Shown: positions 40,862 to 56,561, counted from the first letter of the stretch. The stretch is 64,000 bases of DNA from an uncultured Gammaproteobacteria bacterium (GCA_964485575.1 CAZAJO010000006.1:8990-72989); one strand, 5' to 3'. Notes: generated from the letters alone by a model not told the origin. Translations and numbers: made by a program.

Positions 40862-43114
40862 ATGAACTTGTCACAGAAAAACAAATTTTCTTACTTATTC
40901 CGAAAGTACCGATTAAAGTCAGAATTTGAAACTCTCTCAGATTTCGGAAATGCACTTGCAGAAAAAGGTAGAATATACGAAGATAGTCTTTTTTCGCACT
41001 GGCAAAAAGGGTCTCGTGTACCAAGTGACCGTACCTTGCTACTTAAAATCATATCCTTATTTTCCGAGCTTCATGGCATTAACTCAATAGCAGAGTCAAA
41101 TGAATTTCTTGAGGCCGCTGGACTTTCTGCATTAACCACAGAAGAGATAGATCAATTGCCTGAGAATATAAAGGATATAGCTCCTTTTTTAGCTCCTAAT
41201 AAAATCGTAAATTATATTCAACGAAAAGAAATTCAAAAAAACTCTCGAGAAGCATTGGATTCACTACATATCCTAATACTTTCAGGAAGACCAGGGTCTG
41301 GGAAGTCTGCTTTAGCAATAGAAATGGCCCACGAGTATGCAGCCAGTTATCCAGATGGAGTTTTGTGGTTTCGCGCTGATACAACAACAGCTATGGACAT
41401 CTTAATGGCAATAAGTTTGATTTATAAGAAAGATGTTGCTCATATTAATAATCTTGAGGCTCGAGCTGCTTATGTTAGGTCATTTATGAAAGATAAAAAG
41501 GTCCTCTATATATTTGATAATGTAGAAACAGACTTTGACCATTCCCTATTAATACCCAATCTTGAAAAAAATGCCGTCATTCTAACGACAACAAGCCCTG
41601 AACTTTCAGGTTTTAAAAAGTCATCTATTATTACAGCTTCTCAATTTAACATTTCTGAAACCGAAGAACTTTTTGAATTAATATTAGGGAGCAAAAGTTT
41701 TGAGTTAGTCCGAAATCAACTGCTTGAGATTGCAGAACTCGTTGATTATTTGCCTCTGGCTATTCAAATAATTGCAAGACAGATCGCTGCTAAGAAATAT
41801 AGCACATTAGAAATTATTGAATATTTAAAGAACGATAGCTTTGAACTGAAGCAACTAAAGTATGAGAACAAAGATTTACAATCGACTCTTGAGGCAAGTT
41901 TTAAAAAACTTAATAAAAATGTGGCAACAGTTCTGCTCTCCTTATCTGTTTTTTCTGGTAAAGACTTCTCGTTAGAGGCTGCGATTTCATTACATAATTA
42001 CTCAAGATCACAGATAAAAAACTACTTACTGGAACTTGTTGATAATTCGTTAATTGAAATTTCTTCTGACTCAAGATATAGGCTCAACCCCTTTATCTTG
42101 CGTTTTATTAGAGAAAAGAATACTAATCTCGAGATTTATACAAAAGCAGCCGAGTATTACACTTCTTTATTTAATAATATCAAGGAAGCAGAAATAGAAC
42201 ACCAGATCCTTGTGTACGAGCAAGATAATATTTCCGGGGTTTTAACCCAATGCTTTCAGAACGAACAGTACGCTTTCGTATGCAAATTATTTAAGAATTT
42301 TGGTGTATTTCTGTGGGAAACAGGTCAATGGGAAAAGCTGAAAAATTTTGCTTTCTTAGCTTATAAAAGTGCCAGTAAAATAAATGACAATCAAAGTAGG
42401 ATGCTTATTTGCAACAGAGAACTCAGCTGGGTTTATTATTGGACTGGTGATATTAAGTTGTCCTTAAAGTATACACTTGAGGCAAATAAACTTGCAGCTG
42501 AGCTTAATGACCGCTACTACACAGCTTATACTGAAGAAAGGCTGTCTAAAATCTATCAAGGCATGCGAAGATATGAAGAATCGATTTCTTTAGCTCTTTC
42601 ATCTTTGGCTTACTTTGAGGAAATACACGATTCTTTAAGAATTTCAAATAATTTGCGTCACTTGGGAGAAACTTATTTGATGCTGGGTGATTATATGGTT
42701 GCAAAAGAGTATATCCAGAAATCAAGGGATGCCCTTAAAAAGGTGAAAAATAGGAGGGTTCGGCTGATTCAAGAATGTGTATCTTTGACAGAACTTGCAG
42801 CTATCTTCTATCTTGAGAACAACTTTGAAAGGGCTAAAGAGTTGTTTATGGAAAGTGAAGAAATGGAAGAAAGCATTAAAAGCTTTACTCTTAATCGGAT
42901 TTGGATTAATATTGTGCTCGGATTGATATATGAATCAAAAGAAGATGTGTTTAATGCAAAACAGAAGTTCAGGCTAGCAGAAGATGCATGTATATATCTA
43001 GGGATGAGACGTAACATCTCGGAGATAAGCCCTATTTTGGCTGCTTTGAAGAAGCAACTTGCAAATAGCACTATTTACCAACAGTCGCCTTTTTTGACAT
43101 ACATGAAAAATTAA
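40862..43114 (+). CDS. STAND-class NTPase: N-terminal XRE-like HTH, NB-ARC/AAA ATPase core, C-terminal TPR repeats
   Basis: HTH-like LSDFGNALAEKGRIYEDSLFSHWQKGSRVPSDRTLLLKI. Walker A ILSGRPGSGKSALAIEMA, Walker B VLYIFDNVE, arm ..LPLAIQIIARQIA. Then about 350 aa of TPR-like repeats. Confidence 0.7.
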   Translation: MNLSQKNKFSYLFRKYRLKSEFETLSDFGNALAEKGRIYEDSLFSHWQKGSRVPSDRTLLLKIISLFSELHGINSIAESNEFLEAAGLSALTTEEIDQLPENIKDIAPFLAPNKIVNYIQRKEIQKNSREALDSLHILILSGRPGSGKSALAIEMAHEYAASYPDGVLWFRADTTTAMDILMAISLIYKKDVAHINNLEARAAYVRSFMKDKKVLYIFDNVETDFDHSLLIPNLEKNAVILTTTSPELSGFKKSSIITASQFNISETEELFELILGSKSFELVRNQLLEIAELVDYLPLAIQIIARQIAAKKYSTLEIIEYLKNDSFELKQLKYENKDLQSTLEASFKKLNKNVATVLLSLSVFSGKDFSLEAAISLHNYSRSQIKNYLLELVDNSLIEISSDSRYRLNPFILRFIREKNTNLEIYTKAAEYYTSLFNNIKEAEIEHQILVYEQDNISGVLTQCFQNEQYAFVCKLFKNFGVFLWETGQWEKLKNFAFLAYKSASKINDNQSRMLICNRELSWVYYWTGDIKLSLKYTLEANKLAAELNDRYYTAYTEERLSKIYQGMRRYEESISLALSSLAYFEEIHDSLRISNNLRHLGETYLMLGDYMVAKEYIQKSRDALKKVKNRRVRLIQECVSLTELAAIFYLENNFERAKELFMESEEMEESIKSFTLNRIWINIVLGLIYESKEDVFNAKQKFRLAEDACIYLGMRRNISEISPILAALKKQLANSTIYQQSPFLTYMKN

Positions 43115-43115
43115 T

Positions 43116-43667
43116 ATGAAGGAAGTAGAAATAAAAGCAAAATTAAATGGTATGCATGATAGTCCTGAGTCGATTGAAGCAAGGACCGGCTTGCGTTGGG
43201 AAGAATCTGTCGACCAGAAAGACACAATTTTTCTTCCTGTAGGTATGGATTTTGGTAATTTAACTGATGGTTCACCAGTTTTCCGCCTGAGAGAAGTTGA
43301 TGGGGCCACAATTCTAACTCTTAAAATCTCTTCAGCAGACGCTTCGGAAAGAGCCGAAGAAGAGATATTGGTTGATGATAGTTCTAAGACTAGAAGGATA
43401 GTTGAGTTGTTAGGATTTTCAGAGGCTATAACAATAGAAAAAAGAAGAAGAAAAATGAATTTCGGAGAGTATCTGCTCTTTTTTGATGATGTTCAGGATC
43501 TAGGACAGTTCTTGGAAATTGAAAAGTTGGTTGATGACAATGTAGACGCAGGGCCGATAAAGGAGGATATGATCGCAAGTCTTCAAGCTCTTGGGCTGGA
43601 AGACTTAACAGTTGTGAACAGATCTTACGACGCTCTCCTGTATCAGGCTCGTACTTATAATTCTTAA
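43116..43667 (+). CDS. CYTH domain protein (class IV adenylyl cyclase/CyaB-thiamine triphosphatase fold)
   Basis: Starts MKEVEIKAKL (the EIEIK-type CYTH N-terminal motif). About 180 aa with conserved acidic/basic residues (RLRE, EIEK). ATG overlaps the upstream stop as aTAAtATG. Confidence 0.55.
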   Translation: MKEVEIKAKLNGMHDSPESIEARTGLRWEESVDQKDTIFLPVGMDFGNLTDGSPVFRLREVDGATILTLKISSADASERAEEEILVDDSSKTRRIVELLGFSEAITIEKRRRKMNFGEYLLFFDDVQDLGQFLEIEKLVDDNVDAGPIKEDMIASLQALGLEDLTVVNRSYDALLYQARTYNS

Positions 43668-43675
43668 CTTTCATT

Positions 43676-44257
43676 ATGAAAAAAAAATTAGTAATTTTAT
43701 TTGGACCCTCCGGAGTGGGGAAAAGCAGTTTGATCGGACAAATTACAAAGCTCGAACCAAGAATTAAGGCCGTTATTCCTTTTACTGATAGGCCCAAAAG
43801 GCAAGGCGAATTTTCCAGAAGGAGTATCTCGAGAAAAGACTTCGATCAGTTAGAATCAAAAGCTCAATATATTATCGCAAAGAATATATATGGATATCGA
43901 TACGCAACAAACAAGACAGAGATAAATAGTCTTATAAAAAAAGGTGTAGTGCCAGTCATCGATTTTCCATTGGACAGAGTGGATTTCTTATCAGATTTTA
44001 AAAAAGACGTTTGTGGGATTTACATTGCTCCACCCTCTCTTGCCGTTCTAAAGAGTCGATTGCGTAAGGATGGAAGAGATGTCGATTTGAAAAGGTTTGA
44101 AGAAGGAAAGCTTGAGCTTTCAAAGTTGAAGCAAATGGAATTTAAGCACCCATACATAAGTGCAGTTGTGGTTAATAGTGATCTTGAAAAACAAAGTAAA
44201 GAACTTCTTTCAATTATCTACGAAAATACTAATCTTTCCAAAAAGGAAATTCTGTAG
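43676..44257 (+). CDS. guanylate kinase-like P-loop nucleotide kinase
   Basis: GPSGVGKSSL (P-loop), FTDRPKRQGE (TTRxxRxGE-like NMP-binding motif), YGYRYA, VVPVIDF. Confidence 0.55.
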   Translation: MKKKLVILFGPSGVGKSSLIGQITKLEPRIKAVIPFTDRPKRQGEFSRRSISRKDFDQLESKAQYIIAKNIYGYRYATNKTEINSLIKKGVVPVIDFPLDRVDFLSDFKKDVCGIYIAPPSLAVLKSRLRKDGRDVDLKRFEEGKLELSKLKQMEFKHPYISAVVVNSDLEKQSKELLSIIYENTNLSKKEIL

Positions 44258-44453
44258 TTTTAATCCTTCATAAATATTTATTTCCTATTTTAGTCATGTT
44301 TGATGACAATTTATATAGAAGTGATATATTGCAACAAAAATTTTCACGCAGTGTAATGATAATGATTCTTTGGCAGGACTCTACAAATTGCCCCTCTGTA
44401 CAGTCCAATATTAATAACTTTTCGATTCTAACTTTTGTCTGCCCGAAGACTAA

Positions 44454-44478
44454 CAGCTCAGGCAGAGCTGTTTTTTTT
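44454..44478 (+). terminator. rho-independent terminator-like hairpin CAGCTC-aggca-GAGCTG + T8 in the 5' leader of the tasA-like gene
   Basis: Perfect 6-bp stem plus TTTTTTTT, 200 nt downstream of the previous stop and 33 nt upstream of a strong AAAGGAGG SD and the ATG at 44512. Terminator or attenuator. Confidence 0.55.
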
Positions 44479-44511
44479 GTAGGCTTACTATACGAAAGGA
44501 GGTGAATATAT

Positions 44512-45060
44512 ATGAATAAAAAAATAATGATGAGCGGACTTTCAATAATTTCAGCTCTCACACTTTTAGGAGGCACAGCTTTCGCTGCATTTACTACACA
44601 AGCAACAGCTACTGGTAATACTTTTTCAACCGACAATCCTGCACTTCTGATTTCCTCAGACAGCGCAAATTATTTTGGTGATATTGTAAATCCATTTAAT
44701 GATGCCAATATTGTCCCAGGGTATGAAAGAACTTTTACTTTCTACCTAAAAAACACAGGTAATTCTGCACTTGATGTAAATGCACATTTTACTGGAGTTG
44801 CAGATATTCTTGATAACGTTTTAGTAACTGATTTTGACTGTAGTAATGCTGCAGATCCAAGTGCTTTTAGTGTTACATCCATGAAAGGCGGGTCTGTTAG
44901 TTTGGGAACTATCCAACCTGGAGCACCAAATGCGCTAACATGTCATGTAAAGGTTACACTACCTGTTTCAGTTGACGATACTTATAAAAATAGAACATCT
45001 GTTTTTACAGTTGAATTTAATGGAACAACGGTAGCTCCATCACCTATTCCTGCACCTTAG
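44512..45060 (+). CDS. TasA/camelysin-like secreted protein with SipW-cognate signal peptide
   Basis: MNKKIMMSGLSIISALTLLGGTAFAAFTTQATATGNTFST matches the SipW-dependent signal consensus (..GGTfAyFtd..tNtF). IVPGYERTFTFYLKNTGNSALDV parallels TasA LKPGDK..F.F.NNGSL. Confidence 0.65.
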   Translation: MNKKIMMSGLSIISALTLLGGTAFAAFTTQATATGNTFSTDNPALLISSDSANYFGDIVNPFNDANIVPGYERTFTFYLKNTGNSALDVNAHFTGVADILDNVLVTDFDCSNAADPSAFSVTSMKGGSVSLGTIQPGAPNALTCHVKVTLPVSVDDTYKNRTSVFTVEFNGTTVAPSPIPAP

Positions 45061-45070
45061 TTTTTCGTCT

Positions 45071-45099
45071 GGTGGTGGGAGACTGCCTTTCCCGCCACC
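45071..45099 (+). other. GC-rich stem-loop (GGTGGTGGG-N11-CCCGCCACC) between tasA-like and sipW
   Basis: 9-bp stem with one GU in an AT-rich background. Possible processing or attenuation site. Confidence 0.35.
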
Positions 45100-45124
45100 G
45101 ACACCGGTAAGAAAATAAATACAT

Positions 45125-45676
45125 ATGAAAACGTTCAAACAAATATCAAATATACTACTAGCTGTTTTTATATTCAGTCTGGTTCCAATAGTTTTATTTA
45201 TATTTGTTACTTCAAGATCACCAATACTATTTGGAATTCGTTCTTATGTTGTAGTTACGGGAAGTATGACTCCAGCACTGCCTATAGGAAGTATGGTATT
45301 TACCTATCCAAAAGCTACCTACAATATCGGTGAGATCATAACTTTTAAAAGAGGAAATATCACAATTACACACAGAATCAATGATGTAAAAGACGGGAAC
45401 TATATTACAAAAGGGGATGCAAATAGCTCTACCGACACTCAAATTGTCAGTAAATCCGATATAATTGGTCACGATGTAGCTGTTGTTCCTTTCATCGGAA
45501 GACTGACAGGATTTATCAAAACACCAATCGGGTTTGGGTTACTTTTGGGTATCCCAACTCTACTTTTTGTCTTTTTTGAAGCATGGCAGATGAAAAAGGA
45601 GTGGGAAAAGATAATTGAAAAAAGAGTTAGAGACAACCTTACTACAATAAATCCATTTCATGAATTAAAATTATGA
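45125..45676 (+). CDS. sipW: signal peptidase I, archaeal/ER-type (SipW)
   Basis: N-terminal TM, VVVTGSMTPALPIGSMVF (catalytic Ser box), ITHRI (catalytic His), KGDANSSTD, C-terminal TM. This is the S26B/SipW architecture. Confidence 0.8.
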   Translation: MKTFKQISNILLAVFIFSLVPIVLFIFVTSRSPILFGIRSYVVVTGSMTPALPIGSMVFTYPKATYNIGEIITFKRGNITITHRINDVKDGNYITKGDANSSTDTQIVSKSDIIGHDVAVVPFIGRLTGFIKTPIGFGLLLGIPTLLFVFFEAWQMKKEWEKIIEKRVRDNLTTINPFHELKL

Positions 45677-46158
45677 ATAAGAAGCGAGGACTGATAGGAC
45701 TGTCATTGTTAGTAGCTTTTTGTCTCACTTTGGTAAGTACTTCTTTTGCAAAGTTTACGACATCTGCCACGGCAACAAATAATACATTTTCAACAGCTCT
45801 TGTCTTTGGTACTCCAACCCCCTCAGTATCACCTTCGCCTACTGTAGTCCCTACAACAACACCAACTCCTACTGTGACACCATCTGCTACTCCAACGCCT
45901 ACTGGAACAGGATGCACAAATAACGTTGTCGTTACAGGAGGAGGTACAGGTTCTAATACTTCAGCGACGGTAATTTGCGAAAATAACTCAACTACTACTC
46001 AAACCAACAATACAACTACGAATACTAATATTGATACAAGCTCAAACACTGGGGGAAATACTCAGAATGGAAATACAGGTGGGACAAATACAACAACAAG
46101 TGGTTCTTCAAATACGGTGACAGTTACAACATCCGGGTCCTCAAACACTACGCATTAA
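45673..46158 (+). CDS. second SipW-cognate-signal secreted protein, Thr/Pro/Ser/Asn-rich
   Basis: LVSTSFAKFTTSATATNNTFSTA repeats the cognate signal consensus. The remainder is low-complexity TPT/NTT with two Cys. Confidence 0.55.
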   Translation: MNKKRGLIGLSLLVAFCLTLVSTSFAKFTTSATATNNTFSTALVFGTPTPSVSPSPTVVPTTTPTPTVTPSATPTPTGTGCTNNVVVTGGGTGSNTSATVICENNSTTTQTNNTTTNTNIDTSSNTGGNTQNGNTGGTNTTTSGSSNTVTVTTSGSSNTTH

Positions 46159-46688
46159 CTAACAGGAAGAGCTACAACTACAAATCTTTTTGAATCCAAA
46201 AATCCGGTACAGGTGTAGATAGTGACTCTACTGTCTTTTGTGTTGTCAATTATGTATGTCTGTGATGGATCAACAGTTGCTGTATATTCAACCTTGAACT
46301 CCTTTTTTACACCGTCATTCATCGTGATCCATATCTTTTGACCAGGCTTTACCTGTGGAAGATTTCCTAAAATACTTTTCCAGTTGTGACCATATATCAC
46401 GCTGTTCCCTTTACTTCCTGGCAAAGGAGTTGATTTAAGGTACGAAACACCATTACTTGTCGTTTCCCAAGATTTACCATGAATTGATGCTGGTACTATA
46501 GCTAAATTAGCTTTAATTGATGGGATTTCAATAGATTTTGGGAATTGTCCACCAGTATTTTGGATAACTTGAGGCTTTGCCTTGAAGGTTAGTGGATTTG
46601 AAAAGTTTCTTTGATACAGCAAATAAGCGGCAAAAGCCAAAAAACAGACTCCTACTATCAGAAATAACTTGGAAAAAAAGTTTTGCAT
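46155..46688 (-). CDS. sortase (membrane anchored)
   Basis: N-terminal TM, NSVIYGHNW (catalytic His box), TIYTCTG (TLxTC catalytic Cys), conserved Arg near the C-terminus. Confidence 0.75.
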   Translation of the reverse strand: MQNFFSKLFLIVGVCFLAFAAYLLYQRNFSNPLTFKAKPQVIQNTGGQFPKSIEIPSIKANLAIVPASIHGKSWETTSNGVSYLKSTPLPGSKGNSVIYGHNWKSILGNLPQVKPGQKIWITMNDGVKKEFKVEYTATVDPSQTYIIDNTKDSRVTIYTCTGFLDSKRFVVVALPVS

Positions 46689-46696: not shown

Positions 46697-47311
46697 TTAC
46701 TTAGTATTTTTGCGCATGAAGAGGCCAATCAGAGTCATTAATACTCCAGCTCCGAAGACTGAGAGTACAAAAGTAATGTTACCTGTTGAAGCGAGTCCGA
46801 AAGATCCTTTAGCAGCTTGAACGATAGATCCTAGACCATCAGAACGGCCGTCTGTTCTACCATCTGTTCTTCCGTCAGTTCTACCGTCTCCACCACCTGA
46901 AGTAGTAGTTGTTGAATTACATGAATATGAGATGTTTTTAGCAACATATGGTACGTCATCAAGTCCCCATGCAGCACCTGATGGAACATAGATCCATCCT
47001 TGGCTTTCAAGTACGGCAATTTCTTGCTCAGATACTTCGGTCAATCTTTTCCAATTGGTTTGAATTCCAGCTCCATCAGTACCACAAAAACACTGCATTA
47101 ATGTATCTTGGGATAATGTGTAAACGGTATCAGAACCTGAGTGAAGAGCATTGTCTCCGGCGATTCCGTGTTGTCCACTTGGGTAGCTAGCTTTAACAGT
47201 TCCTGTAGGTGTTAAACATGATGCAGGAGTAACTTCTGCTGCCATAGCGGAATTAACTCCGGCTGTGCCGAGAAGAATTGCAGACGTCAATAATATAGAA
47301 TATAACTTCAT
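46697..47311 (-). CDS. sortase substrate surface protein (LAXTG-type sorting signal LASTG + TM + KR tail) with DGRT x4 tandem repeat
   Basis: Signal peptide, Cys-containing domain, TTTSGGGDGRTDGRTDGRTDGRSDG, then ..SFGLASTGNITFVLSVFGAGVLMTLIGLFMRKNTK. Confidence 0.7.
   Translation of the reverse strand: MKLYSILLTSAILLGTAGVNSAMAAEVTPASCLTPTGTVKASYPSGQHGIAGDNALHSGSDTVYTLSQDTLMQCFCGTDGAGIQTNWKRLTEVSEQEIAVLESQGWIYVPSGAAWGLDDVPYVAKNISYSCNSTTTTSGGGDGRTDGRTDGRTDGRSDGLGSIVQAAKGSFGLASTGNITFVLSVFGAGVLMTLIGLFMRKNTK
46836..46883. repeat. four tandem 12-nt repeats encoding (DGRT)4 inside the sortase-substrate CDS
   Basis: ccatcagaacgg/ccgtctgttcta/ccatctgttctt/ccgtcagttcta on the plus strand. Confidence 0.7.
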
Positions 47312-47360: not shown

Positions 47361-50030
47361 CTACTTTGTGACCGACAAGGAGTAATCTTTGATGATCTTT
47401 ATTATCTGAGAGTCGTTTTTGTCTAAAGGTGAGATTCCAAAAGAATCATCCTCTTTTAGAGCCCAGTTCCAAAGAACTACCCCATCTATACCCTCTTTTT
47501 TAACTGAATTTAGGAATTCTGACAGTTCCAGCTCTCTATTCACCCTATTTCCATTATCATCAGATTTACTAAATCCAACCTCGCCAATAATAAGTGGCTT
47601 GTTATTGTTTCTTCTGACCTGTATGGCCCAGTCTTTGATGACAGTTGCAGTCTTTTGCTTTTCGTATTGTACGTAATAATGAGCTGTTGGAAGCGCACCC
47701 GGTGCAATGTCCCCTATATCGGAAAGGAAAGGTCCTGCGTCTCCCGTGTTATATATAGGAGTAAAACCTTCAGTTCCAAGCGTTATTATATGATTTGAAT
47801 CTAATGAATAGATAAATTCGCTTGTCTGCTTCATCCAGTTTGTCACTGTTTCGGTTTTTGAAGTTGTTGAGCTTCTTGGTTCATTCATAAGTTCCCAAGC
47901 CATAATTGAGGGTTGACGGCTTAAAGGTCTGTCGTTGAATTGGCTTTTGAACGTTATTACATGCTTTATGTAGTCCTGGAAGTTTTTTTGAACATTTTTG
48001 TCTGTAAAAAATGCGTCAAAATTGCTATTTGTGGAGTTTGGAAGATTATTCCAAGCTAAATATTGAGGAACCCCTCCATAATCTGCCCAATAATTTGAGA
48101 GAGTTATGATGAGCTTTATATCGTACTTTTCTGCTCTATCGACAATATACGCTAGTTTTTGAAGCTTCTCTTCATTGTAAACACCCGGTTGGGGTTGAAA
48201 TCCGTCTTCAGTCCCTTCACCAAAAGCCCAGAACCTCATTACTTTTATTCCGTTTTGGGAAGCCAATTTCATGGTTGAATCTATCTCTTCTTCACTTCTA
48301 TAGGCAAGATCGTACGAATTTACACCAATGAACTTAAATTCTTTGTTGTTTAAGGACAATGAAGAACCATCAAGAACAACAAAGTCTTTTGGATCTTCCT
48401 TTCTGACGTAAACGTTTGTATGCTTACCACGGAAGCTTAAGGTGTAGTGTGTTAAAAATGCACTTTTATTCTTTTTGACCAAAGATTCGTACACCTGGTC
48501 ACCTACATCACCATTTGCCATGACAATCCATTTGGCTTGACGCCGAGGGTCTGTGAGGGCATTTGTCCAATAATCCCCTGTTCCTTCGTGGATGAAGCGT
48601 TTCATAGGGATTCCTGTTGAAAAAGCAAGCGCATTGTTAAATGCAATTGAGGTTAAAATAAGACCATCTCTGTCCTTTGCAGTTGCTATCAGGTGATCTC
48701 TAACATCCTTCACATTCAAAGAGCTAGTACCAGAAACTCCATCAGTAAGGGTAATTATATTTTTCCCGATATAAAAACTTTGAAATTGAAGCATAATTAT
48801 GACCAAAAGAAGCACTTTCAAAAGAGCACTCTTTCTCACGATATATGAAGCAAAAAATGCTACAGCCGGAAGAATCATGAGTCCATATCTCACATTGAAC
48901 CAAGATGCACTAGCCTCCTGCGTAATTTTTACACCTAATTCAGGAACAATAAGAATTGAAAACCCTAATATGAGGGAGATTACATGGAAGGCAAAGGGAG
49001 ACAAAAGTGTGTAAACCGCAAGAGCTCCATCTTTTAGCTTTTCTCGCAGTACGTAAAACGCAAGACCAATGACGGAAAGAACCATAGGCACAAAACCAAT
49101 ATTGTCTACCATGGCTAACCAGTAGATCTTAAGAGATAGGAGCACGTCGTATTTGGAGACCAGAGATCCTGCAGCTTCAATCTTTGCTTGCTGTGCGTGA
49201 GCAGAATACGGACCATAGGCAAAGTAAAGCGGGTCATTGAAGATCAATAAGTTCCAGATGAGCCATGCTACTATTCCAAGTCCTCCAAGTACACCAAAAA
49301 GAATAAGCCTACCCTCAAGAAGCCTTACTAGACCACCTAGCCTTTTTTTGAAAGACTCTTTTGAATACAAAATAGCATCTTTGTAACTTATCAGAGACAA
49401 AGTCCCAAGCATCGCAAACAACAAGAACCATCCGTCATAGCGGGTTAATGTCGCTAAAAATACCCAGAAAGAAGGTAGGATCAAATTGATAGTTTTTTTG
49501 TCCTCAGTCCATTTGTAGAAAGAGTAACTAGCACTTGTAAAGAAGAGTAACAGAAGAAGCTCAGTCATAGGAGTTGACTGCATGTAAAGTACGTTAAGGT
49601 TTGTTGCAAAAAGCAGAGTGCCAAGTAGCGCTGTGATTTTTCCTTTCAAAGTGTGCTTTATGAATAGATAGACAACATATACTGTGGCAACATATGACAA
49701 CATAGACCAGATGGATCCTGCAAACCCCGACTGCCACAACGAATCATTCCAGACTAAAGTAAGCTTTAGTAGATGATCTAACGGGAGCCAAACAGAACCA
49801 ATCTGAGCAAGTCCTGGCTTCAAATTATCAACAACTAACCGTGCCATATTCATATGGGCACGAGCATCATTATAGGCAACTACCGTATCAAGCTTGAGAA
49901 AGACAAGATAGCTGATGATACTTAGTATTGCTGCCAATAGAGGCACCCATAGATCAGGTAAGTTGATTGTAATATAGGGCAACTTTATTTCTATATTGCC
50001 ACCAAATATTTTTTTAAGTAGATTTTTCAT
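47361..50030 (-). CDS. fusion: GT-C-type membrane glycosyltransferase-like domain + glycoside hydrolase family 5 (mannanase/cellulase-like) domain
   Basis: N-terminal about 520 aa with at least 12 TM. C-terminal TIM barrel with MAWELMNEPR (acid/base Glu in NEP) and IIGEVGF (nucleophile Glu), the hallmarks of GH5. Confidence 0.6.
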   Translation of the reverse strand: MKNLLKKIFGGNIEIKLPYITINLPDLWVPLLAAILSIISYLVFLKLDTVVAYNDARAHMNMARLVVDNLKPGLAQIGSVWLPLDHLLKLTLVWNDSLWQSGFAGSIWSMLSYVATVYVVYLFIKHTLKGKITALLGTLLFATNLNVLYMQSTPMTELLLLLFFTSASYSFYKWTEDKKTINLILPSFWVFLATLTRYDGWFLLFAMLGTLSLISYKDAILYSKESFKKRLGGLVRLLEGRLILFGVLGGLGIVAWLIWNLLIFNDPLYFAYGPYSAHAQQAKIEAAGSLVSKYDVLLSLKIYWLAMVDNIGFVPMVLSVIGLAFYVLREKLKDGALAVYTLLSPFAFHVISLILGFSILIVPELGVKITQEASASWFNVRYGLMILPAVAFFASYIVRKSALLKVLLLVIIMLQFQSFYIGKNIITLTDGVSGTSSLNVKDVRDHLIATAKDRDGLILTSIAFNNALAFSTGIPMKRFIHEGTGDYWTNALTDPRRQAKWIVMANGDVGDQVYESLVKKNKSAFLTHYTLSFRGKHTNVYVRKEDPKDFVVLDGSSLSLNNKEFKFIGVNSYDLAYRSEEEIDSTMKLASQNGIKVMRFWAFGEGTEDGFQPQPGVYNEEKLQKLAYIVDRAEKYDIKLIITLSNYWADYGGVPQYLAWNNLPNSTNSNFDAFFTDKNVQKNFQDYIKHVITFKSQFNDRPLSRQPSIMAWELMNEPRSSTTSKTETVTNWMKQTSEFIYSLDSNHIITLGTEGFTPIYNTGDAGPFLSDIGDIAPGALPTAHYYVQYEKQKTATVIKDWAIQVRRNNNKPLIIGEVGFSKSDDNGNRVNRELELSEFLNSVKKEGIDGVVLWNWALKEDDSFGISPLDKNDSQIIKIIKDYSLSVTK

Positions 50031-50031
50031 A

Positions 50032-51552
50032 CTATTTTTTGTTTCTTGTTAAAATTGTTCCTGTCAAAAGTGTTAAAAATAGACCACTTGCTACTCCAAA
50101 AAGACCAAGGGCGTACTGATAAAGGCTTATTGATTTTCTAAAAAATGTATTGAAGACAAATGAGCCGGACACGTTTTTTTGAAGGTAATCCCAGTTGAGT
50201 AAGTAATTGTATTTCATGTGAAGTCCAGTTGCCTCATGGTATGGAGGAACTTGGTTTGTCGTTATAGCACCTAACGTATTTACCCCTATGCTATATACCC
50301 CGGTTGAGATCAAAGCTAGCAAAAACAGCCAATTTCTTCTGTAGACTTGGATGGCTTGTGCCAAAAGTATGCTTGCCAACCCAAAAACAGGAATCAGATA
50401 CCGAGGTCCAAATGCCCATCCTCCCCACGGATCTCCCCACGCGGAATAGACTGAAAATACTGTAACAATTGTTACAAAAAGCACAATAGCCTCATTCCTT
50501 GCCTTCTTGAGTAAACTCTTGATACCTAAGAACGCAAGAATAATAAATGGGGAGTAAAGAAATATTCCGCGATCATAACTCATAGAAAGAACAGCGCTTC
50601 CTTTCATAAGATCGTTATAGTTCAAAAAAGCTGCTGTATTATTTTCTTTTTTACCCTTTGGAATTACAGGTTGACCTGCTTTGTCTATTTTCCCAACAGA
50701 AATAACTGCCTGGGAAAGTTTGATGGGTTGACCATAGGTTGTCTGATTGTAAAACATCCATGCGGTAAACAAGGGAAGTACAAATAGCGCCCCATAAATA
50801 ATGGATTTTGAGACAGATATCTTTATCCTTTTTATTTTTGAGTCAACCCCACACTTCTGAAAGATCATAAAAAGAACAAATGGGGTGACAAACAGAACAT
50901 TTGGGGTATCTACAAGAAAAGCAAAAAATGCCAAAAGCCAAATAAATCCAGCGTTGACGATACTTCTTTTAGAAAGAATGAGTCTGAATATTGTCAAAAG
51001 AATCAATGTTGTCAGAAGGTGTTGATATATTGAAGTTGTGTAAGCCCAAGCGCTTGTTCCAAAAAGGAAAAGGCTTACTGATACAAGGCTAGGAAGAACA
51101 CCCATATTAAGTTTTCTACCAATACTTGTAACAACAGCAACTAAAAGCATTGCAATAACAATAGAGATAGAACCCGTAGCCAGTTGAGCGTATCCATAGA
51201 TTTTTCCAACCGCATAGAATGGTGCTGAAAGGAGCAGGAATCCCGGCGGATATAACCCAACGTACTTACCATTGTGGTATCCAAGATCCGGAAGAACTAT
51301 TCTTGCCACCTCAACAGGAAGAGTTGTTGAGTTGTATTCCATAAGAGCCAATAATTGAGCGTACCTATTCCTCTCCGGAGAATTTTCAAATGGAGCCCCA
51401 GCACTTTTTAGATTTTCTTCAATGTATTTCGCACTTGGGTTACCAGCAACTCCTTTAAGAGTTGATGTCAAAAGCACTGCAAAAACCACAACAATTACAA
51501 CAAAACTAAAGACCTTACCTATTGATTTAAATAACGATTTACTCATGTTCAT
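50032..51552 (-). CDS. polytopic membrane protein, putative GT-C family glycosyltransferase
   Basis: 506 aa, about 12 TM, in-operon with other glycan genes. Assignment by context and topology only. Confidence 0.4.
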   Translation of the reverse strand: MNMSKSLFKSIGKVFSFVVIVVVFAVLLTSTLKGVAGNPSAKYIEENLKSAGAPFENSPERNRYAQLLALMEYNSTTLPVEVARIVLPDLGYHNGKYVGLYPPGFLLLSAPFYAVGKIYGYAQLATGSISIVIAMLLVAVVTSIGRKLNMGVLPSLVSVSLFLFGTSAWAYTTSIYQHLLTTLILLTIFRLILSKRSIVNAGFIWLLAFFAFLVDTPNVLFVTPFVLFMIFQKCGVDSKIKRIKISVSKSIIYGALFVLPLFTAWMFYNQTTYGQPIKLSQAVISVGKIDKAGQPVIPKGKKENNTAAFLNYNDLMKGSAVLSMSYDRGIFLYSPFIILAFLGIKSLLKKARNEAIVLFVTIVTVFSVYSAWGDPWGGWAFGPRYLIPVFGLASILLAQAIQVYRRNWLFLLALISTGVYSIGVNTLGAITTNQVPPYHEATGLHMKYNYLLNWDYLQKNVSGSFVFNTFFRKSISLYQYALGLFGVASGLFLTLLTGTILTRNKK

Positions 51553-52325
51553 ATGACTCTTTTAATATTGTATAGAAAAAAAAGAATTCTTGAGTAGGTC
51601 AATCCAGCTGGGGTTAATAACGTTTTGAATTCTTCAATAGACACATCGTTTCCAATACAATATCTCGGAATTTCATAAAGAGAATTATTGGTATATAGGG
51701 CCGATTTCGTAGTAAAAGCAGCTGCATAGCCACTTTTCGAAACAACGTCTAGAACAGCATTATTATACTTTCCAAACGGGTAAGCAAAGTATCTGATTGT
51801 AGAACCTAACTTTTTTTCAAAGGTTCTTTTCGATATAGTTATTTCTTTTACCAGCTCTTTTTTGTCAATCTTTGACAAGTCTTTGTGATTTTCTGAGTGA
51901 TAGCCAACTACAATGTTGTCACTACTAATCTTTTTTAGATCTGCTAGGGACAAGGTGGCAAAACTGGGATTAGAACCTTCAAAAGTTCTTTTACCTGAAT
52001 TTCCTAAGGCAAAAAGAGTTACGGGGACATTATGTTTTTTAATAAGTGGTAATGCATTATTGGCAAAGGTCGTGTACCCATCATCAAAAGTTATTGCAAC
52101 CTGTCTTTTTTTCGATACAGATTTGATAATTTCATCTAAAGAAACTATTTTATAATTATCTTTCAAATATGCTAATTGTCTTTCAAACTCTATTTCTTTT
52201 GTCGAAAATTCCCAATCGCTTTCATCAATTGAATGATAGCAGAGGATTACTTTTTGATCATTGCTTTGAGTTTTATTTACAAAATTCAAGAGTTTTAAAA
52301 TTAATTTTTGGACATTCTTTTTCAT
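51549..52325 (-). CDS. polysaccharide deacetylase (NodB domain)
   Basis: LCYHSI.., VAITFDDGY, NVPVTLFALG, HSENH. Confidence 0.75.
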   Translation of the reverse strand: MKKNVQKLILKLLNFVNKTQSNDQKVILCYHSIDESDWEFSTKEIEFERQLAYLKDNYKIVSLDEIIKSVSKKRQVAITFDDGYTTFANNALPLIKKHNVPVTLFALGNSGKRTFEGSNPSFATLSLADLKKISSDNIVVGYHSENHKDLSKIDKKELVKEITISKRTFEKKLGSTIRYFAYPFGKYNNAVLDVVSKSGYAAAFTTKSALYTNNSLYEIPRYCIGNDVSIEEFKTLLTPAGLTYSRILFFLYNIKRVI

Positions 52326-52329
52326 GGTT

Positions 52330-53292
52330 TTAGCTTGCTAAATACTTTTTCATGTATCTCATTGCATCTTTGCTAAACGGGTCAGTAGAACTTTCCGTGG
52401 CTACACATTGAACCGAGTAATAAATACTAAGGCTCTTGAAGAAATTTCTTTGGGTGTCTGTCGTTGCAAACGTAGACACAATCTTATCAGTGTAGCTTTT
52501 ACCCAATTTTTTGAAAAGATACCTACAAGTGATGGCTAGATCGGTGTAAGGTTCAGCTAGGCAAGCAATTTCTGTGTCAATTATGTACGCTCTTTTTTTT
52601 GAATACAGAATGTTGTCCAGATGCAAATCCCTGTGAGCCAATGTCAAATTTGAATTAACTTTTCTTAAATCATAACGGGCTTTGTAAAACAAAAAAGCAG
52701 TACTACATAAAAACATTATCTCGCTTGGTTTTTTAAGAATTGATTTTATTAAATATAGAAGAAAAGAGACTGTGATGTATGCTTTTCCTCTTTTAGGAAA
52801 ATTTCCCTTTTTATAAAATTTTGTTTTGCCGTTTTGGTAAAGATAATCTAGTATTTCGACAGTTAACCTATAGAGTTGCTCACTCTTCAAGTTTGAAACG
52901 GATTCACCTTCAATGAATTCCCTTTGTAAAATCAGGCTACCGTCCATATTTTGAAATTTTAAGATTTTTGGAAAAGTTATTGAAAAATTTCCATTAGTTT
53001 TTTTCTCTTCGTATTTAGAAAAAACCTCTAGCATGCTTGCTTCATTTAGCAACTGAAAGTATTTTAAATTTTTCAATTTAAAACTAAGTTTTTTTTCTAT
53101 ATAGCCCTTAGAGTTGTTATTAATAAGATTTACAGAGTACCCTAATTTTTTATCAGCGGCAGCAGATATGCTTTCTGAATTGCTTATTTTAAGCAGGTTT
53201 GCACCATTTATTCTGCTTTGTAAAGCTTGTTCGACTGGAGCTACTATCCAACCCCTCATTGCGTTACTGTATGTTAGATATTTATTAATCAT
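52330..53292 (-). CDS. protein-kinase-like fold phosphotransferase (APH/LPS-kinase-like)
   Basis: Catalytic loop LAHRDLHLDNILY (HxDLHxxN) and downstream IIDTE (DxE/DFG-equivalent). Confidence 0.55.
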   Translation of the reverse strand: MINKYLTYSNAMRGWIVAPVEQALQSRINGANLLKISNSESISAAADKKLGYSVNLINNNSKGYIEKKLSFKLKNLKYFQLLNEASMLEVFSKYEEKKTNGNFSITFPKILKFQNMDGSLILQREFIEGESVSNLKSEQLYRLTVEILDYLYQNGKTKFYKKGNFPKRGKAYITVSFLLYLIKSILKKPSEIMFLCSTAFLFYKARYDLRKVNSNLTLAHRDLHLDNILYSKKRAYIIDTEIACLAEPYTDLAITCRYLFKKLGKSYTDKIVSTFATTDTQRNFFKSLSIYYSVQCVATESSTDPFSKDAMRYMKKYLAS

Positions 53293-54194
53293 GTTCTTGT
53301 TGTCTTTGTACTAAACCACTCAAGCTTGTAGTTTTTTGAGAAAAACGAATAGAAGGGAATGCACAAAAGCTTTACTAGCGAAATGTATATAGTCCCAATT
53401 GGGTTTGCTTTCAAAGCTATTACAACACCCTCGAGAATAACTTTTTTTGGCCTAGAGAACTCTATTGAAAGTTGTTTCTGGTGCAGTAATCCAAGATCGT
53501 GCTTCGTCGCTTGAGGTGTGGACCTAAAAGCTTGTCTTAGATAATCCCTAATTGTTTTGGGGAGTTTATAAGAAACTTTTGACTCTTTTGCATATCTGAA
53601 GAGGTACCCTTTTGAAATGCATTCAAGGTATATGTAATCGTCATCTGCTGTAATCTCAGGTATAGTTAGGTTTTTGGCAAATTCGGCTCTTAACCCTAAG
53701 CATGCACCTGTGCATCCATAGATATTGTTGCCCGATTGTAAGCTTTCTCTTGTATGTAGGTATACAATTAATGTTGAGTAGATTGCTTTTTCTATAAAAC
53801 CTGAGGGCTTACTAGGATGAGAATTGCTACTTACAAGCATAACTTTTGGGTTCTGTAAAAATTTCTCTACATGCTTTGTTAATACACTATCGTTCTCTAA
53901 GGTCACATCAGCGTCAAGCAAAAGTATCACGTCACTACTAAAACTTCTCAAAAGGAAGTTAATTCTCAACCTTTTTCCTAATCTTTTCTGACCTGTAACT
54001 AACTTTAATTTTTTACTTTTTATACTTTTTACTTCGTTGTTTGTATTGTCAGTACTCCCATCAGAGACAACTATAATGTTCTTTAGCACAAAATTTGAAG
54101 TTTTTTGCTTGAGAATAGATTTTATTAAGTGTTTAATATTTTTCTCTTCGTTGTAGGCAGGAATTCCGATTGTAAGTGTTAATTTTTTAGCCAT
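53289..54194 (-). CDS. glycosyltransferase family 2
   Basis: IGIPAYNEEKNI.., VVSDGSTDNT, LLDADV (DxD). Confidence 0.8.
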   Translation of the reverse strand: MAKKLTLTIGIPAYNEEKNIKHLIKSILKQKTSNFVLKNIIVVSDGSTDNTNNEVKSIKSKKLKLVTGQKRLGKRLRINFLLRSFSSDVILLLDADVTLENDSVLTKHVEKFLQNPKVMLVSSNSHPSKPSGFIEKAIYSTLIVYLHTRESLQSGNNIYGCTGACLGLRAEFAKNLTIPEITADDDYIYLECISKGYLFRYAKESKVSYKLPKTIRDYLRQAFRSTPQATKHDLGLLHQKQLSIEFSRPKKVILEGVVIALKANPIGTIYISLVKLLCIPFYSFFSKNYKLEWFSTKTTRT

Positions 54195-54196
54195 AT

Positions 54197-55465
54197 TTAA
54201 ATAATGAATGATTTAACTGTTGTAAAAAATACAGACATAGGACTTAGAAAAGGTCTCCAAATACCCGATTTTTGCTTAATAACTGTAGGTATTTCTTTAG
54301 CACTATTTTTTTCGATTTTTAGTTGTTCCAAGGCTTCTCCAAGTACTTTTACAACGGTTTTGCGCTCAATGGACGTCATTGAAGAATAAAGCGGAAGTCT
54401 TAAAAGTCTTTCTGCATACTCTTCAGTGATAGGTAGATCTGATGCTACATTTCCCAATTTGCGTCCTTGAGGCGCACTATGTAGAGGAATATAGTGAAAT
54501 GTTGCAGAAATCTCATTCGTTCTCATGAAATCCATTACAAAATTGCGATCCTGAGCACTTGGCATGATTATGTAAAAAATGTGGGCATTATGACCTGCGT
54601 AGTCTGGAATTGTTGGTATATCCAAAAGTTTTTTGTGAGCAAATCTCCCTACCTCTCTTGCATAGAAGTCATAATTTTTTTGTCTCAATCGGGTTATCTT
54701 TTCAACACTCTCAAGTTGGGCAAGGAGGTATGCTGCAAGAATGTCGCTTGGCAAGTAGCTTGAGCCAACATCAACCCACGTGTACTTGTCTACTTCTCCT
54801 CTAAAGAATTTACTTCTGTTTGTCCCTTTTTCTCGGATGATTTCTGCCCTTTCAACAGCATTGTCTTCTTCGTTATTGATAAAGAGCGCACCACCTTCAC
54901 CACAGGTGATATTTTTTGTATCGTGGAAAGAAAAACATCCAAAATCTCCAATAGTTCCAAGATATTTGTCTTTGTATTTTGCTTCAATCGCTTGTGCTGC
55001 ATCTTCAACCACCTTCAAGTTGTGCTTTTTAGCGATAGTCATAATCTTATCCATATCACAAGCAACACCTGCGTAGTGGACCACCATAATTGCTTTCGTT
55101 TTTTTAGTTATTTTTCTCTCAATGTCTTTAGCATCAATGTTTAATGTCTGTTTTTCTATTTCAGCAAAAACTACTTTTACACCTTGAGCAAGAAGGATAG
55201 CGTTAATCGTTGAAGAGAAAGTAAAGGATGGTGCTATCACTTCATCGCCTGGCTTTAAGTTGAGAAGTCGTATTGCAAGTTCTAAGGCTGATGTTCCTGA
55301 TGTAGTCAATAGTGCCCTTTTGGTGCCATACCTTTTCTCAAGAAAACTGTGCACTAGTTTTGTGTATTTGCCATCCCCGGACATATCCATTCTGTTATCC
55401 AGAATGTCGTGGATATATTTGCTTTCGTTGCCTGTAATATATGGTTTGAATAATTTAATTTTCAT
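54197..55465 (-). CDS. DegT/DnrJ/EryC1/StrS family PLP-dependent sugar aminotransferase
   Basis: ..GDEVIAPSFTFSSTINAI.., DAAQAIEAKYKDKYLGTIGDFGCFSFHDTKNITCGEGGAL (Lys in FHxxK). Confidence 0.85.
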   Translation of the reverse strand: MKIKLFKPYITGNESKYIHDILDNRMDMSGDGKYTKLVHSFLEKRYGTKRALLTTSGTSALELAIRLLNLKPGDEVIAPSFTFSSTINAILLAQGVKVVFAEIEKQTLNIDAKDIERKITKKTKAIMVVHYAGVACDMDKIMTIAKKHNLKVVEDAAQAIEAKYKDKYLGTIGDFGCFSFHDTKNITCGEGGALFINNEEDNAVERAEIIREKGTNRSKFFRGEVDKYTWVDVGSSYLPSDILAAYLLAQLESVEKITRLRQKNYDFYAREVGRFAHKKLLDIPTIPDYAGHNAHIFYIIMPSAQDRNFVMDFMRTNEISATFHYIPLHSAPQGRKLGNVASDLPITEEYAERLLRLPLYSSMTSIERKTVVKVLGEALEQLKIEKNSAKEIPTVIKQKSGIWRPFLSPMSVFFTTVKSFII

Positions 55466-55466
55466 A

Positions 55467-56561
55467 TTAAATTCCTTTCAAAATGTCTAGTGAAAATTGC
55501 TCATATTTATTCGCAACGTTCTCCCATGTATATTTCTTGCTTATTTTCCTTGCTTCTTTACCCATTTGTGTAAAGACACTTTTTTTAGACGCCTTGATGA
55601 GTAAATTCCCGTATTCGGCAATGTCAAACATTTTAGCCTTCAAATTCACTTTTTCAGTTGTCCATGAAAGAGACGGGATGTCAAAGCTAACCAATGGGAG
55701 TCCTGAAGCTAATGCTTCAAGAGAGAACAGTGAAAATCCTTCGTGCCTGGACGGAAATGCAACAAAGGCAGCTTTTGATAGAAGTTGTTCTTTGTCTTTT
55801 CCATAGGATGGACCTAGTACTTTGACTTTGTCCTGAAGTTGAAGTGAATTTACCATTTTTTCGATTTTTTCTTTGTCTGGACCAACCCCTACCATTACAA
55901 GTGGGAGGCAATTTTTACTTACCTTCGCGTAGGATTTAAGCAGTAAATCAATGCCCTTTTGACCCATGTCATACCTTCCTAAAAATAAAATGTACTCTGG
56001 CTTTTTCTTTTTGATCTTAAAAAATTCGCTACCTACTCCTTCAGGCACTATTTTTGAAACTACATTTTTGTTAACCTTGCGTATTTTTTTATCCTGATGG
56101 ACCGTAAAAGGAAGTGCGTATTTGTAGAACCTCAGTCCAAAATTTTCAATGAGGTCAAAAGGTAATTTATAGAGCTTCGCAAATCTCTCAGCCTCAAATG
56201 ATGTCGTAAGAGCAACGACAGGAATTCTTGTAAAAAGAGGTGAGAATAGAGTTGAAATAGGAGCTGTAAAACATTCAACTATAATGTCTCCTTTCAACCC
56301 AATAACGGTCGCTGGAAGAAGGAGAATGTATAGGAGATTGTTGAGTCTGATGTTCTTTGTTCCTACTCCGATGTGTTTATAGGTGAGACCATTTTCAACC
56401 CTATCTTCGTATCCCGGATACTTCGAACAAATGACAGTTATCTTGTGCCCTTTTTTTACCAAACGGCTACCTACTTCAACTGTTGCTCGCGCTTGACCTG
56501 CACCAAGTAGTGGGTTTTTTATATCGTCAAAGTCCAAAAATATTATGTTAAGTTTTTTCAT
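55467..56561 (-). CDS. glycosyltransferase family 4 (GT-B)
   Basis: ..FPSRHEGFSLFSLEALASGLPLVSFDI (EX7E motif). Confidence 0.8.
   Translation of the reverse strand: MKKLNIIFLDFDDIKNPLLGAGQARATVEVGSRLVKKGHKITVICSKYPGYEDRVENGLTYKHIGVGTKNIRLNNLLYILLLPATVIGLKGDIIVECFTAPISTLFSPLFTRIPVVALTTSFEAERFAKLYKLPFDLIENFGLRFYKYALPFTVHQDKKIRKVNKNVVSKIVPEGVGSEFFKIKKKKPEYILFLGRYDMGQKGIDLLLKSYAKVSKNCLPLVMVGVGPDKEKIEKMVNSLQLQDKVKVLGPSYGKDKEQLLSKAAFVAFPSRHEGFSLFSLEALASGLPLVSFDIPSLSWTTEKVNLKAKMFDIAEYGNLLIKASKKSVFTQMGKEARKISKKYTWENVANKYEQFSLDILKGI

Follow-up and report, generated by a model that had tools for sequence, protein, structure and literature searches.

The locus considered here raises the question of whether three adjacent genes, at positions 44512-46158 of a 64-kb stretch of DNA from an uncultured bacterium (CAZAJO010000006.1:8990-72989; the whole 64,000-nucleotide stretch is called the window below), encode a surface fibre, or two secreted proteins and the enzyme that processes them. 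TasA-type fibres are the protein scaffold of Bacillus biofilms, and homologues of TasA are on record from archaea and from several phyla of bacteria, Patescibacteria among them. Calling of open reading frames (ORFs) in the window places the three genes on the + strand in the order major subunit, peptidase and second substrate. A preliminary description had read them as a tapA-sipW-tasA-like operon; two substrates do flank a signal peptidase of the endoplasmic reticulum (ER)/archaeal type, whereas the order differs from that name, being substrate-peptidase-substrate. At the level of the genes this reading is supported, in that both flanking products carry SipW-type signals. Beyond this, sequence comparison and structural modelling make it fairly likely that the region encodes a SipW-dependent fibre system of the TasA superfamily, which would polymerise by donor-strand exchange and employ a TapA-like partner that is not homologous to TapA.

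The trio of pilin, peptidase and Thr/Pro-rich protein is present in all related loci whose downstream sequence is long enough to show it (L001, L003, L004, L005, L010, L011, L014, L015, L017, L027, L037, L039, L040 and L041), and the adjacency of substrate and peptidase genes is kept throughout, as is a strong stem-loop between the pilin and peptidase genes. The start codon of the third gene (45673-46158) overlaps the stop codon of the middle gene (45125-45676) in the tetranucleotide ATGA.

The middle gene (+ strand) codes for a 183-residue ER/archaeal-type signal peptidase (S26B, SipW/SEC11-like) with Ser47, His83 and Asp98, and with hydrophobic segments at its N- and C-termini that are probably transmembrane. 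With TIGR02228, the model of archaeal/ER-type signal peptidase I, its product reaches 86.7 bits (cut-off 51.85), and with TIGR02227, the bacterial LepB-type model, only 17.4 bits (cut-off 47); grouping with LepB-type enzymes had been named beforehand as an outcome that would speak against the operon, and the protein does not group with them. The S26B/SipW catalytic boxes claimed from inspection are likewise borne out: GSM (S47), THR (H83) and GDAN (D98) are invariant in five orthologues, giving a Ser/His(/Asp) arrangement and not a Ser/Lys dyad, and they align with SGSMEPA, VHR and GDNN of SEC11A. A profile of these five orthologues matches SEC11A/SEC11C alone in the PDB (E about 1e-12). Against NF046067, the Bacillus SipW equivalog, the protein reaches 82.8 bits with a cut-off of 190, which makes it the same type of enzyme and not an orthologue by the NCBI criterion; a score below this threshold is expected given the distance of the organism.

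The first gene (44512-45060, + strand) encodes a 182-residue precursor that begins MNKKIMMSGLSIISALTLLGGTAFAAFTTQATATGNTFST, with a predicted SipW cleavage site AFA(25)|A(26) that would leave a mature protein of 157 residues. We infer that cleavage after Ala25 retains the mature N-terminal motif AFTTQATATGNTFST as a donor strand. The link to TasA runs through relatives. A word-indexed search recovered 27 clusters of homologues of 171-229 residues, 14 of which match PF12389 (Peptidase_M73) at E≤0.01 (best 2e-7). Among 1.84 billion representatives, a profile search recovered 2706 related clusters, with PF12389 matched by 68 of 124 sampled members at E≤0.001 (best 3.5e-20). Along this series the N-termini grade smoothly into the canonical ...GATFAFFSD.ATS..NTF.AGTLDL signal. 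Profile-profile comparison with hhalign connects the family profile to Bacillus subtilis TasA at 87% probability (E 3.8e-6) and a wider profile at 97.2% (E 3.8e-11), in an alignment that runs from the signal and its cleavage site through the donor strand to the PG....F.L.N.G strands; a 513.8-bit match to the TasA equivalog confirms the TasA query. Because relatives and profile-profile comparisons connect the two, we keep the assignment of the pilin to the TasA/camelysin (PF12389) superfamily and regard that membership as established at the level of sequence, transitively and not directly. The TasA/camelysin-like core motifs of the preliminary description are only weakly true of the window protein taken alone; the evidence from the family as a whole is much stronger.

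The pattern of conservation within the family points the same way. Residues 1-40 of the pilin are identical at 29-39 of 40 positions in relatives, and the remainder is just 24-58% identical. Invariant residues are concentrated in the first 45 positions (S8, S11, I12, G21, A25, F27, A31, T37, F38 and L45), with P69, G70, N81 and the cysteine pair C110/C144 beyond them; at the cleavage site A25 is invariant and A23 almost so. In the hhalign alignment the invariant F27 and F38 fall on TasA F29 and F39. In the cryo-electron microscopy structure of the TasA fibre the donor strand comprises residues 28-38, and F29, F39 and I32 make hydrophobic contacts (PMC9674648). An apparent hypervariability of the pilin beside an identical SipW (184, 176 and 177 residues) was discarded, as these are the same ORF with differing start-codon calls.

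The predicted fold is consistent with a fibre subunit. AlphaFold2, given a 27-sequence alignment, models the pilin as an all-β sandwich with two short helices at a mean predicted local distance difference test score (pLDDT) of 78.7, most 10-residue blocks of the mature domain lying at 80-91. Structural comparison with the TasA fold had been proposed for the 182-residue protein; Foldseek returned, among its significant PDB matches, several donor-strand pilins, headed by self-complemented FimA (6erj, E 7e-5) and including the archaeal bundling pilin AbpA (7ueg, E 1.4e-4, template modelling (TM) score 0.40), which is a TasA homologue, the Sulfolobus thread subunit (7pnb), FimG and CS20. AbpX and TasA are among the best PDB matches in sequence-profile searches, though at non-significant scores. 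As modelled, the compact sandwich of about 157 residues appears to resemble full-length TasA less than it does donor-strand pilins such as AbpA and FimA.

The two substrates are tied together by their N-termini, where the first and third proteins share 25 of 41 identical residues (BLASTP E=3e-4). Cleavage-like sites, AFA|A in the first and SFA|K in the third, are followed by nearly identical mature N-termini, AFTTQATATGNTFST and KFTTSATATNNTFST respectively; after the first mature residue 12 of 14 motif residues are the same (F27-T40 against F28-T41), and a six-frame motif scan of the window found this motif confined to the two ORFs. The N-terminal strings had been quoted exactly in the claim that both flanking ORFs begin with a SipW-dependent signal. 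They represent a divergent form of that signal, FTT..ATA.GNTFST as against FSD..TS..NTF.AGTLDL, and the SipW-cognate signal model TIGR04088 (cut-off 19 bits) reaches them only by way of relatives, of which P0035, P0040, P0103, P0108 and P0131 pass at 19.3-34.7 bits. Across related loci the 16-residue mature motifs of the two substrates are more alike within than between genomes, with a summed identity of 131 as compared to 111.3±4.8 for permuted pairings (p=3e-4). The signal derives from lineages whose two motifs changed jointly, namely L004 (N.Y.GN.F in both substrates), L005 (FSSTN.N.GN.F) and L040 (F[VI]V.ATS); the independent events behind it are few, and gene conversion could contribute. 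Both N-terminal strands are evidently under one constraint, as far as sequences can tell.

The third gene (45673-46158, + strand) codes for this second SipW-type substrate, a 161-residue protein that starts MNKKRGLIGLSLLVAFCLTLVSTSFAKFTTSATATNNTFST and consists of the signal ending SFA|K, the motif KFTTSATATNNTFSTALVFG, a Thr/Pro linker and an approximately 80-residue, Cys-bracketed C-terminal domain rich in Asn, Thr and Gly. Its description as a Thr/Pro/Asn-rich low-complexity protein agrees with the composition of its 136 post-signal residues (T 46, N 18, S 17, G 14, V 11, P 10). Library scans assign it no Pfam or NCBIfam family, the C-terminal domain taken from six genomes has no Pfam family, and its database relatives amount to one weak match. 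In related loci, a third gene overlapping the peptidase stop yields 14 distinct sequence variants which keep one architecture: a variable signal, a cleavage site [FY][AG]|[KRQI], the motif F.T.A.ATNNTFSTA..FG.PTP, the Thr/Pro linker, and then about 80 residues of the form C..N..V.G.G.GS....V.C...T...Q.N..., rich in Asn/Thr/Gly. Variants beside an identical peptidase (L027/L028) measure 149 and 161 residues, and those beside a near-identical one (L037/L038) 164 and 170, differing in each case in the length of the Thr/Pro linker, which suggests repeat slippage in the stalk. The N-terminus of B. subtilis TapA resembles the donor strand of TasA, which polymerises by donor-strand exchange, and can supply that strand (PMC9674648, PMC10151520). 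From this precedent and the shared strand we propose that the third protein may work like TapA, by a copy of the donor strand at its N-terminus, and yet is not, by sequence, a TapA homologue.

Several observations weigh against the fibre reading. In direct profile searches the window proteins fall below the curated cut-offs: PF12389 aligns with residues 2-90 of the pilin, mostly its N-terminus, at 15.3 bits (E=0.019) where the gathering cut-off is 22.5, the TasA equivalog NF046066 gives 13.9 bits with a cut-off of 450, and TIGR04088, which scores TasA itself at 38 bits as a control, matches neither window N-terminus even at E≤10. The hidden Markov model searches proposed at the outset for the SipW-cognate and TasA families thus reach those families via relatives and profile-profile comparison, and not from the window proteins themselves. 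The homology to TasA is confined to about the first 80 residues of the pilin, the Foldseek TM-scores are low (0.33-0.41), and TasA itself lies outside the top 50 matches. Some members of PF12389 (camelysin) have been described as cell-surface proteases and not as fibres. A single-sequence AlphaFold2 model of the third protein is uninformative (pLDDT 47), and the conserved N-terminal motif could reflect recognition by the peptidase alone. Finally, the host is probably of the candidate phyla radiation (CPR, Patescibacteria) type, a placement taken from just one relative labelled Candidatus Saccharimonadales.

Part of this evidence is what would be expected if the flanking proteins were ordinary secreted or surface proteins, an adhesin or camelysin-like protein and a mucin-like glycoprotein, which share a signal for a dedicated peptidase and build no fibre. 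The direct family scores are sub-threshold, the shared motif and its co-variation within genomes could follow from co-evolution with one peptidase, and the third protein does resemble a disordered glycoprotein. However, about 15 residues of the mature protein belong to the motif, whose invariant positions correspond in the alignment to the TasA donor-strand contacts F29 and F39; the best matches in the fold search are donor-strand pilins; and a highly conserved N-terminus attached to a fast-evolving body is typical of polymerising pilins. We accordingly consider ordinary surface proteins an unlikely explanation, and a donor-strand fibre the preferred one.

How such a system might be expressed is suggested by the DNA around the pilin gene. 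Its non-coding leader (44334-44511, + strand) is 74-89% identical in nucleotides to eight distinct relatives, whereas at four-fold degenerate sites the same pairs agree in only 29-44% of positions in sipW and in about 44-65% in pilin codons 1-40. As leader identity is far above that of four-fold degenerate sites, the leader is under purifying selection, and recent transfer of the leader block is not, on this comparison, the explanation. In L010, L011 and L037 the upstream gene is divergent, and the pilin gene still has this leader. Rfam has no match to it, at E≤1 over 43.5-47.5 kb and at the gathering threshold over the whole window. One of two candidate promoters lies just 5' of it at 44303-44330 (+ strand; ATGACA, 16 nucleotides, TATATT, with TG upstream; 10/12 in a consensus scan), in a region conserved in relatives, L003 having C at position 2 of the putative -10 element. 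Two ORFs in this segment were set aside: a leader peptide of 69 residues (44296-44505), the frame of which is broken among close relatives by single-nucleotide indels (T7 against T8; TTC-TTGG against TTCTTTGG), and an antisense ORF of 122 residues (44268-44636), which is likewise spurious.

Two elements stand out within the leader. The first is an invariant core of 35 nucleotides, GGCAGGACTCTACAAATTGCCCCTCTGTACAGTCC (44372-44406, + strand), an imperfect palindrome of the form GGACT.TACA-N11-TGTA.AGTCC that occurs a single time in the window, with 0 occurrences expected by chance and no second copy in the 64 kb. It is present once per locus in 30 of 38 loci examined, and at every locus with checked gene positions it is upstream of the pilin gene; a metagenome scan with a 22-nucleotide core returned one contig and a scan of viral contigs none. 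RNAalifold pairs it as a hairpin, without covariation. The second is a terminator-like hairpin, AACAGCTC-AGGCA-GAGCTGTT (44452-44472, + strand), with an 8-bp stem whose last two bases are overlapped by a T8 run (44471-44478); a terminator scan recovers it as the preliminary description had it, in the 5' leader. Among seven distinct sequences 98.2% of the cells of this hairpin are paired and four of its eight pairs have changed on both sides, which none of 500 shuffles reaches (with the register aligned manually and N put in the loops), and the G·U pairs that it tolerates are confined to the sense strand. Three of nine relatives (L003, L004 and L016) retain the hairpin and have a degenerate U-run, so that control of read-through may not be its universal role. 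Two metagenome samples with this locus (L007 and L008), identical in pilin and peptidase, differ in carrying T8 and T7 in the leader, a homopolymer polymorphism at the putative terminator. Distant relatives that lack the leader sequence (L001 at about 5930-5965, L005 at about 5950-5985 and L040 at about 2275-2305) have an unrelated hairpin and T-run just upstream of the Shine-Dalgarno site of the pilin gene; here the architecture is conserved and the sequence is not.

The hairpin fits the terminator consensus and lies 195 nucleotides downstream of a co-directional guanylate-kinase-like (gmk-like) gene that ends at 44257, and could in principle be the intrinsic terminator of that gene, outside the pilin transcript. 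We judge this very unlikely: the leader and hairpin are kept in L010, L011 and L037 despite a divergent upstream gene, an unrelated hairpin and T-run sit at the same position in L001, L005 and L040, compensatory changes keep the hairpin in relatives without a U-run, and the T-run is 16 nucleotides from the Shine-Dalgarno site and 33 from the ATG, leaving no room for a promoter. Since the leader travels with the pilin gene and this gap is so short, the hairpin lies inside the pilin transcript, or in a short RNA that needs read-through.

A stronger competitor holds that the leader acts chiefly as DNA, the 35-nucleotide palindrome being an operator over a promoter (TTGCCC, a spacer of about 17-18 nucleotides and a GATAAT-like element) and the hairpin a 5'-terminal stabiliser of the messenger RNA. 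The core is invariant, so that nothing favours RNA pairing over a DNA site; a -35/-10-like arrangement (TTGATAAT) is readable in most relatives; and the hairpin outlives its U-run in L003, L004 and L016. Yet the -10 candidate in the window itself is poor and the site was missed by the promoter scan, the sense-strand-only G·U pairs indicate selection at the RNA level for the hairpin at least, and complementary invariant loops, found even in L042 with its other stems, point to RNA-RNA or RNA-factor contacts. A leader working mainly as DNA is a possibility that we take seriously, while leaning towards a role as RNA. A σ54 promoter in TTGGCAGG...TTGCC was rejected, as the distance from GG to GC is 17 nucleotides and 11 are needed.

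Downstream of the hairpin the leader ends in an extended Shine-Dalgarno site, AAAGGAGGTG (44495-44504, + strand), 7-9 nucleotides before the ATG, with the octamer AAAGGAGG at 44495-44502, 9 nucleotides before it. The octamer has six copies in the window, and the only other one nearby (43559) does not precede a start codon, which agrees with the claim that this is the only strong Shine-Dalgarno site of the region. GGAGGTGA is invariant in seven aligned loci, with close variants in L039 (GGGGGTGA) and L042 (GGGAGGTGA).

At the other end of the pilin gene, the GC-rich stem-loop that had been noted between the tasA-like gene and sipW is confirmed at 45067-45102 (+ strand), with a core of 12 bp, three outer pairs, the loop CUGCC and no U-run; its folding free energy is -24.9 kcal/mol (z = -4.4), and none of 200 shuffles folds as well. 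All 14 intergenic regions folded have a strong hairpin without a U-run in this gap, of unrelated sequence in L001, L005, L039, L040 and L041, and within the close group 91.6% of its cells are paired, with one compensatory pair. Such a stem-loop could act as a barrier that stabilises the 3' end, be a site of processing or bring about partial termination. The pilin has an 11-nucleotide Shine-Dalgarno site, sipW has none, and the third gene starts within the sipW stop; taken together, these signals, the hairpins and the overlap fit, as a prediction, the proposed regime of much substrate and little peptidase. Regulated read-through at the leader hairpin and control of stoichiometry at the stem-loop, as suggested earlier, are likewise supported by the conservation and covariation of both hairpins, and may be their roles.

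The two hairpins that bracket the pilin cistron also have complementary loops. That of the leader hairpin reads AGGCA(G) and that of the intergenic one CUGCC; an invariant CTGCCC lies directly 5' of the leader hairpin (44439-44444, + strand), complementary to the loop GGCAG and to the GGCAG at 44372, where GGCAGG opens the core. In the window only these two long hairpins carry GGCAG or CTGCC in the loop, and no other was found there. CTGCCC is invariant in all leaders, including that of L042, which lacks the core and has two wholly different stems; there the leader loop is still GGCAG, CUGCCC still precedes it, and the intergenic loop is exactly CUGCC. The RNAalifold consensus pairs CUGCC with the loop GGCAG, and all bases of this alternative pairing are invariant. 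Loops that stay fixed while their stems change by compensation may represent an antiterminator switch, a 5'-3' kissing contact or the site of a shared trans factor.

The fibre system that we favour would operate as follows. The 182-residue precursor would be exported and cut after Ala25 by the Ser/His(/Asp) ER-type peptidase of its own operon, as its alignment with TasA suggests. Homology and fold suggest that the new N-terminus, AFTTQATATGNTFST, would be the donor β-strand that completes the β-sandwich of the next subunit, giving a head-to-tail polymer as in TasA, AbpA and type 1 pili. As the third product has the same N-terminal strand and no pilin domain, it probably supplies the first or the last complementing strand. 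It could thus be a TapA-like nucleator or anchor, of which the Thr/Pro stalk, possibly glycosylated, and the Asn/Thr/Gly-rich domain would tether or decorate the fibre end. Expression would be tilted towards the major subunit by its perfect Shine-Dalgarno site, the absence of one on sipW and the translational coupling of the third gene, and the leader and 3' stem-loop would most likely set how stable the messenger RNA is and how far it is read through, so that much pilin but little of the peptidase or partner is made.

Systems of this kind are known, and a comparison with them sets off what is particular here. Like the B. subtilis tapA-sipW-tasA operon, the locus has a dedicated ER-type peptidase between or next to two substrates with SipW-cognate signals, a major subunit homologous to TasA over the signal, donor strand and first β-strands (by the hhalign comparisons above, 87-97%), and a minor partner whose mature N-terminus copies the donor strand, as for TapA (PMC9674648, PMC10151520); in both, the expected output is far more major subunit than peptidase or partner. 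Unlike in B. subtilis, the order is major subunit, peptidase, partner; the major subunit is much smaller (157 residues when mature) and lacks helical insertions and a C-terminal extension; the partner has a Thr/Pro stalk and an Asn/Thr/Gly-rich domain in place of an immunoglobulin domain and is not a TapA homologue; a structured leader and an intergenic hairpin stand where B. subtilis has SinR operators; and the host is uncultured and probably belongs to the CPR. The Bacillus cereus sipW-tasA-(bc1280)-calY and Clostridium perfringens sipW-bsaA loci similarly link sipW to matrix proteins of the PF12389/TIGR04088 type, with more than one substrate per locus, but the second substrate there, if present at all, is a paralogous camelysin (CalY), whereas here it keeps the N-terminal strand only. 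Polymers of BsaA have been reported to have isopeptide bonds (PMC11580942); nothing in the present locus suggests such bonds.

[quoted passage not shown] A partner that would give the first strand has been proposed there (PMC9245690). The archaeal systems, in contrast, have no dedicated peptidase gene in the operon (PMC9245690), and the window pilin is clearly nearer in sequence to the bacterial PF12389 proteins. Chaperone-usher type 1 pili (FimA/FimG) share the immunoglobulin-like pilin fold completed by the N-terminal strand of a neighbour; they differ in having no sequence homology to the pilin and in their chaperone and usher, neither of which is found here, where the envelope is of monoderm type and assembly would presumably be spontaneous or nucleated outside the cell. 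While the kind of system is thus known, the conserved RNA leader and the second substrate have not been described before.

Immediately downstream, and convergent to the operon, lies a sortase gene (PF04203, E 1.5e-23; 46155-46688, - strand) whose stop overlaps that of the third gene. Next to it is a gene for a 204-residue sortase substrate (46697-47311, - strand) that ends in LASTG, a hydrophobic stretch and RKNTK (LAxTG-type) and contains a fourfold GRTD repeat. This pair adjoins the operon in L011 and L037/L038 as well, a sortase is found nearby in L001, L005 and L041, and operon and pair may form a conserved cell-surface island. The proximity of a sortase and an LAxTG-type substrate, directly downstream on the opposite strand, and the unusually conserved hydrophobic N-terminus of the pilin might suggest that the operon itself encodes a sortase-assembled or type IV pilin-like pilus. 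We find this improbable in the extreme, as neither operon substrate has a C-terminal sorting signal, the adjacent peptidase is of the S26B and not the prepilin type, and the N-terminus of the pilin aligns with the signal and cleavage site of TasA and lacks the type IV Gly|Phe...Glu5 pattern. SipW-dependent processing, as set out above, remains our preferred reading.

Beyond the sortase pair is a gene (47361-50030, - strand) for an 889-residue fusion of an N-terminal PMT_2 membrane domain (GT-C, protein-mannosyltransferase-like) with a C-terminal domain of the GH5 cellulase family, with homologues close to the operon in L001 and L002 as well as in L003 and L004 (about 50% identity). As a speculation, this protein might glycosylate the Thr/Pro stalk of the third protein. 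A polysaccharide-type cluster follows at 50032-61413 (- strand), with genes for a polysaccharide deacetylase, a GT2 glycosyltransferase, a DegT-family aminotransferase, two GT4 enzymes and a double-GT2 protein; with the fibre operon, it resembles a "matrix" neighbourhood of extracellular polysaccharide and fibre genes. Upstream of the operon, three genes at 40862-44257 (+ strand) encode a 750-residue STAND-type protein with NB-ARC and TPR, a CYTH (class IV adenylate cyclase-like) protein and the divergent guanylate-kinase-like protein (85 bits against TIGR03263, cut-off 160). In L011 and L037 the upstream neighbours are instead a GAF-histidine kinase and an OmpR-type regulator, on the other strand. 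Elsewhere in the window, the cysteine--tRNA ligase ORF (17475-18629, + strand; 384 residues) matches positions 1-375 of the 466-position TIGR00435, its C-terminal part being apparently missing.

The window has a GC content of 37.9%, and its contig is carried by the samples SRR16481186 and SRR20074300. Among the metagenome-assembled genomes with a sortase/SipW/TasA-type locus, L002-L006 are titled "uncultured Gammaproteobacteria bacterium" and L001 "Candidatus Saccharimonadales"; for a locus of monoderm type the proteobacterial labels look unreliable. PF12389 has previously been reported in Patescibacteria (PMC9245690).

The locus would represent a minimal and well-delimited version of the TasA-type system, consisting of a 157-residue subunit, a dedicated peptidase and a partner that retains nothing of the subunit but the donor strand, and the operon is small enough for direct heterologous reconstitution. 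What is new here is an approximately 180-nucleotide leader conserved though synonymous sites are saturated, the compensatory changes in its hairpin, and the co-variation of the N-terminal motifs. It is conceivable that the pilin cistron is bracketed by a previously undescribed cis-regulatory RNA system that sets pilin dosage, and that the third gene founds a TapA-independent family of strand-donating initiators or anchors; we offer this broader proposal tentatively, and think it rather doubtful in full. The co-varying N-terminal strands bear on how fibres are nucleated, and the conserved leader with its complementary loops offers candidates for a new RNA-level control of pilin dosage. In an uncultured lineage that probably lives attached to other cells, surface fibres of this type would likely matter for attachment.

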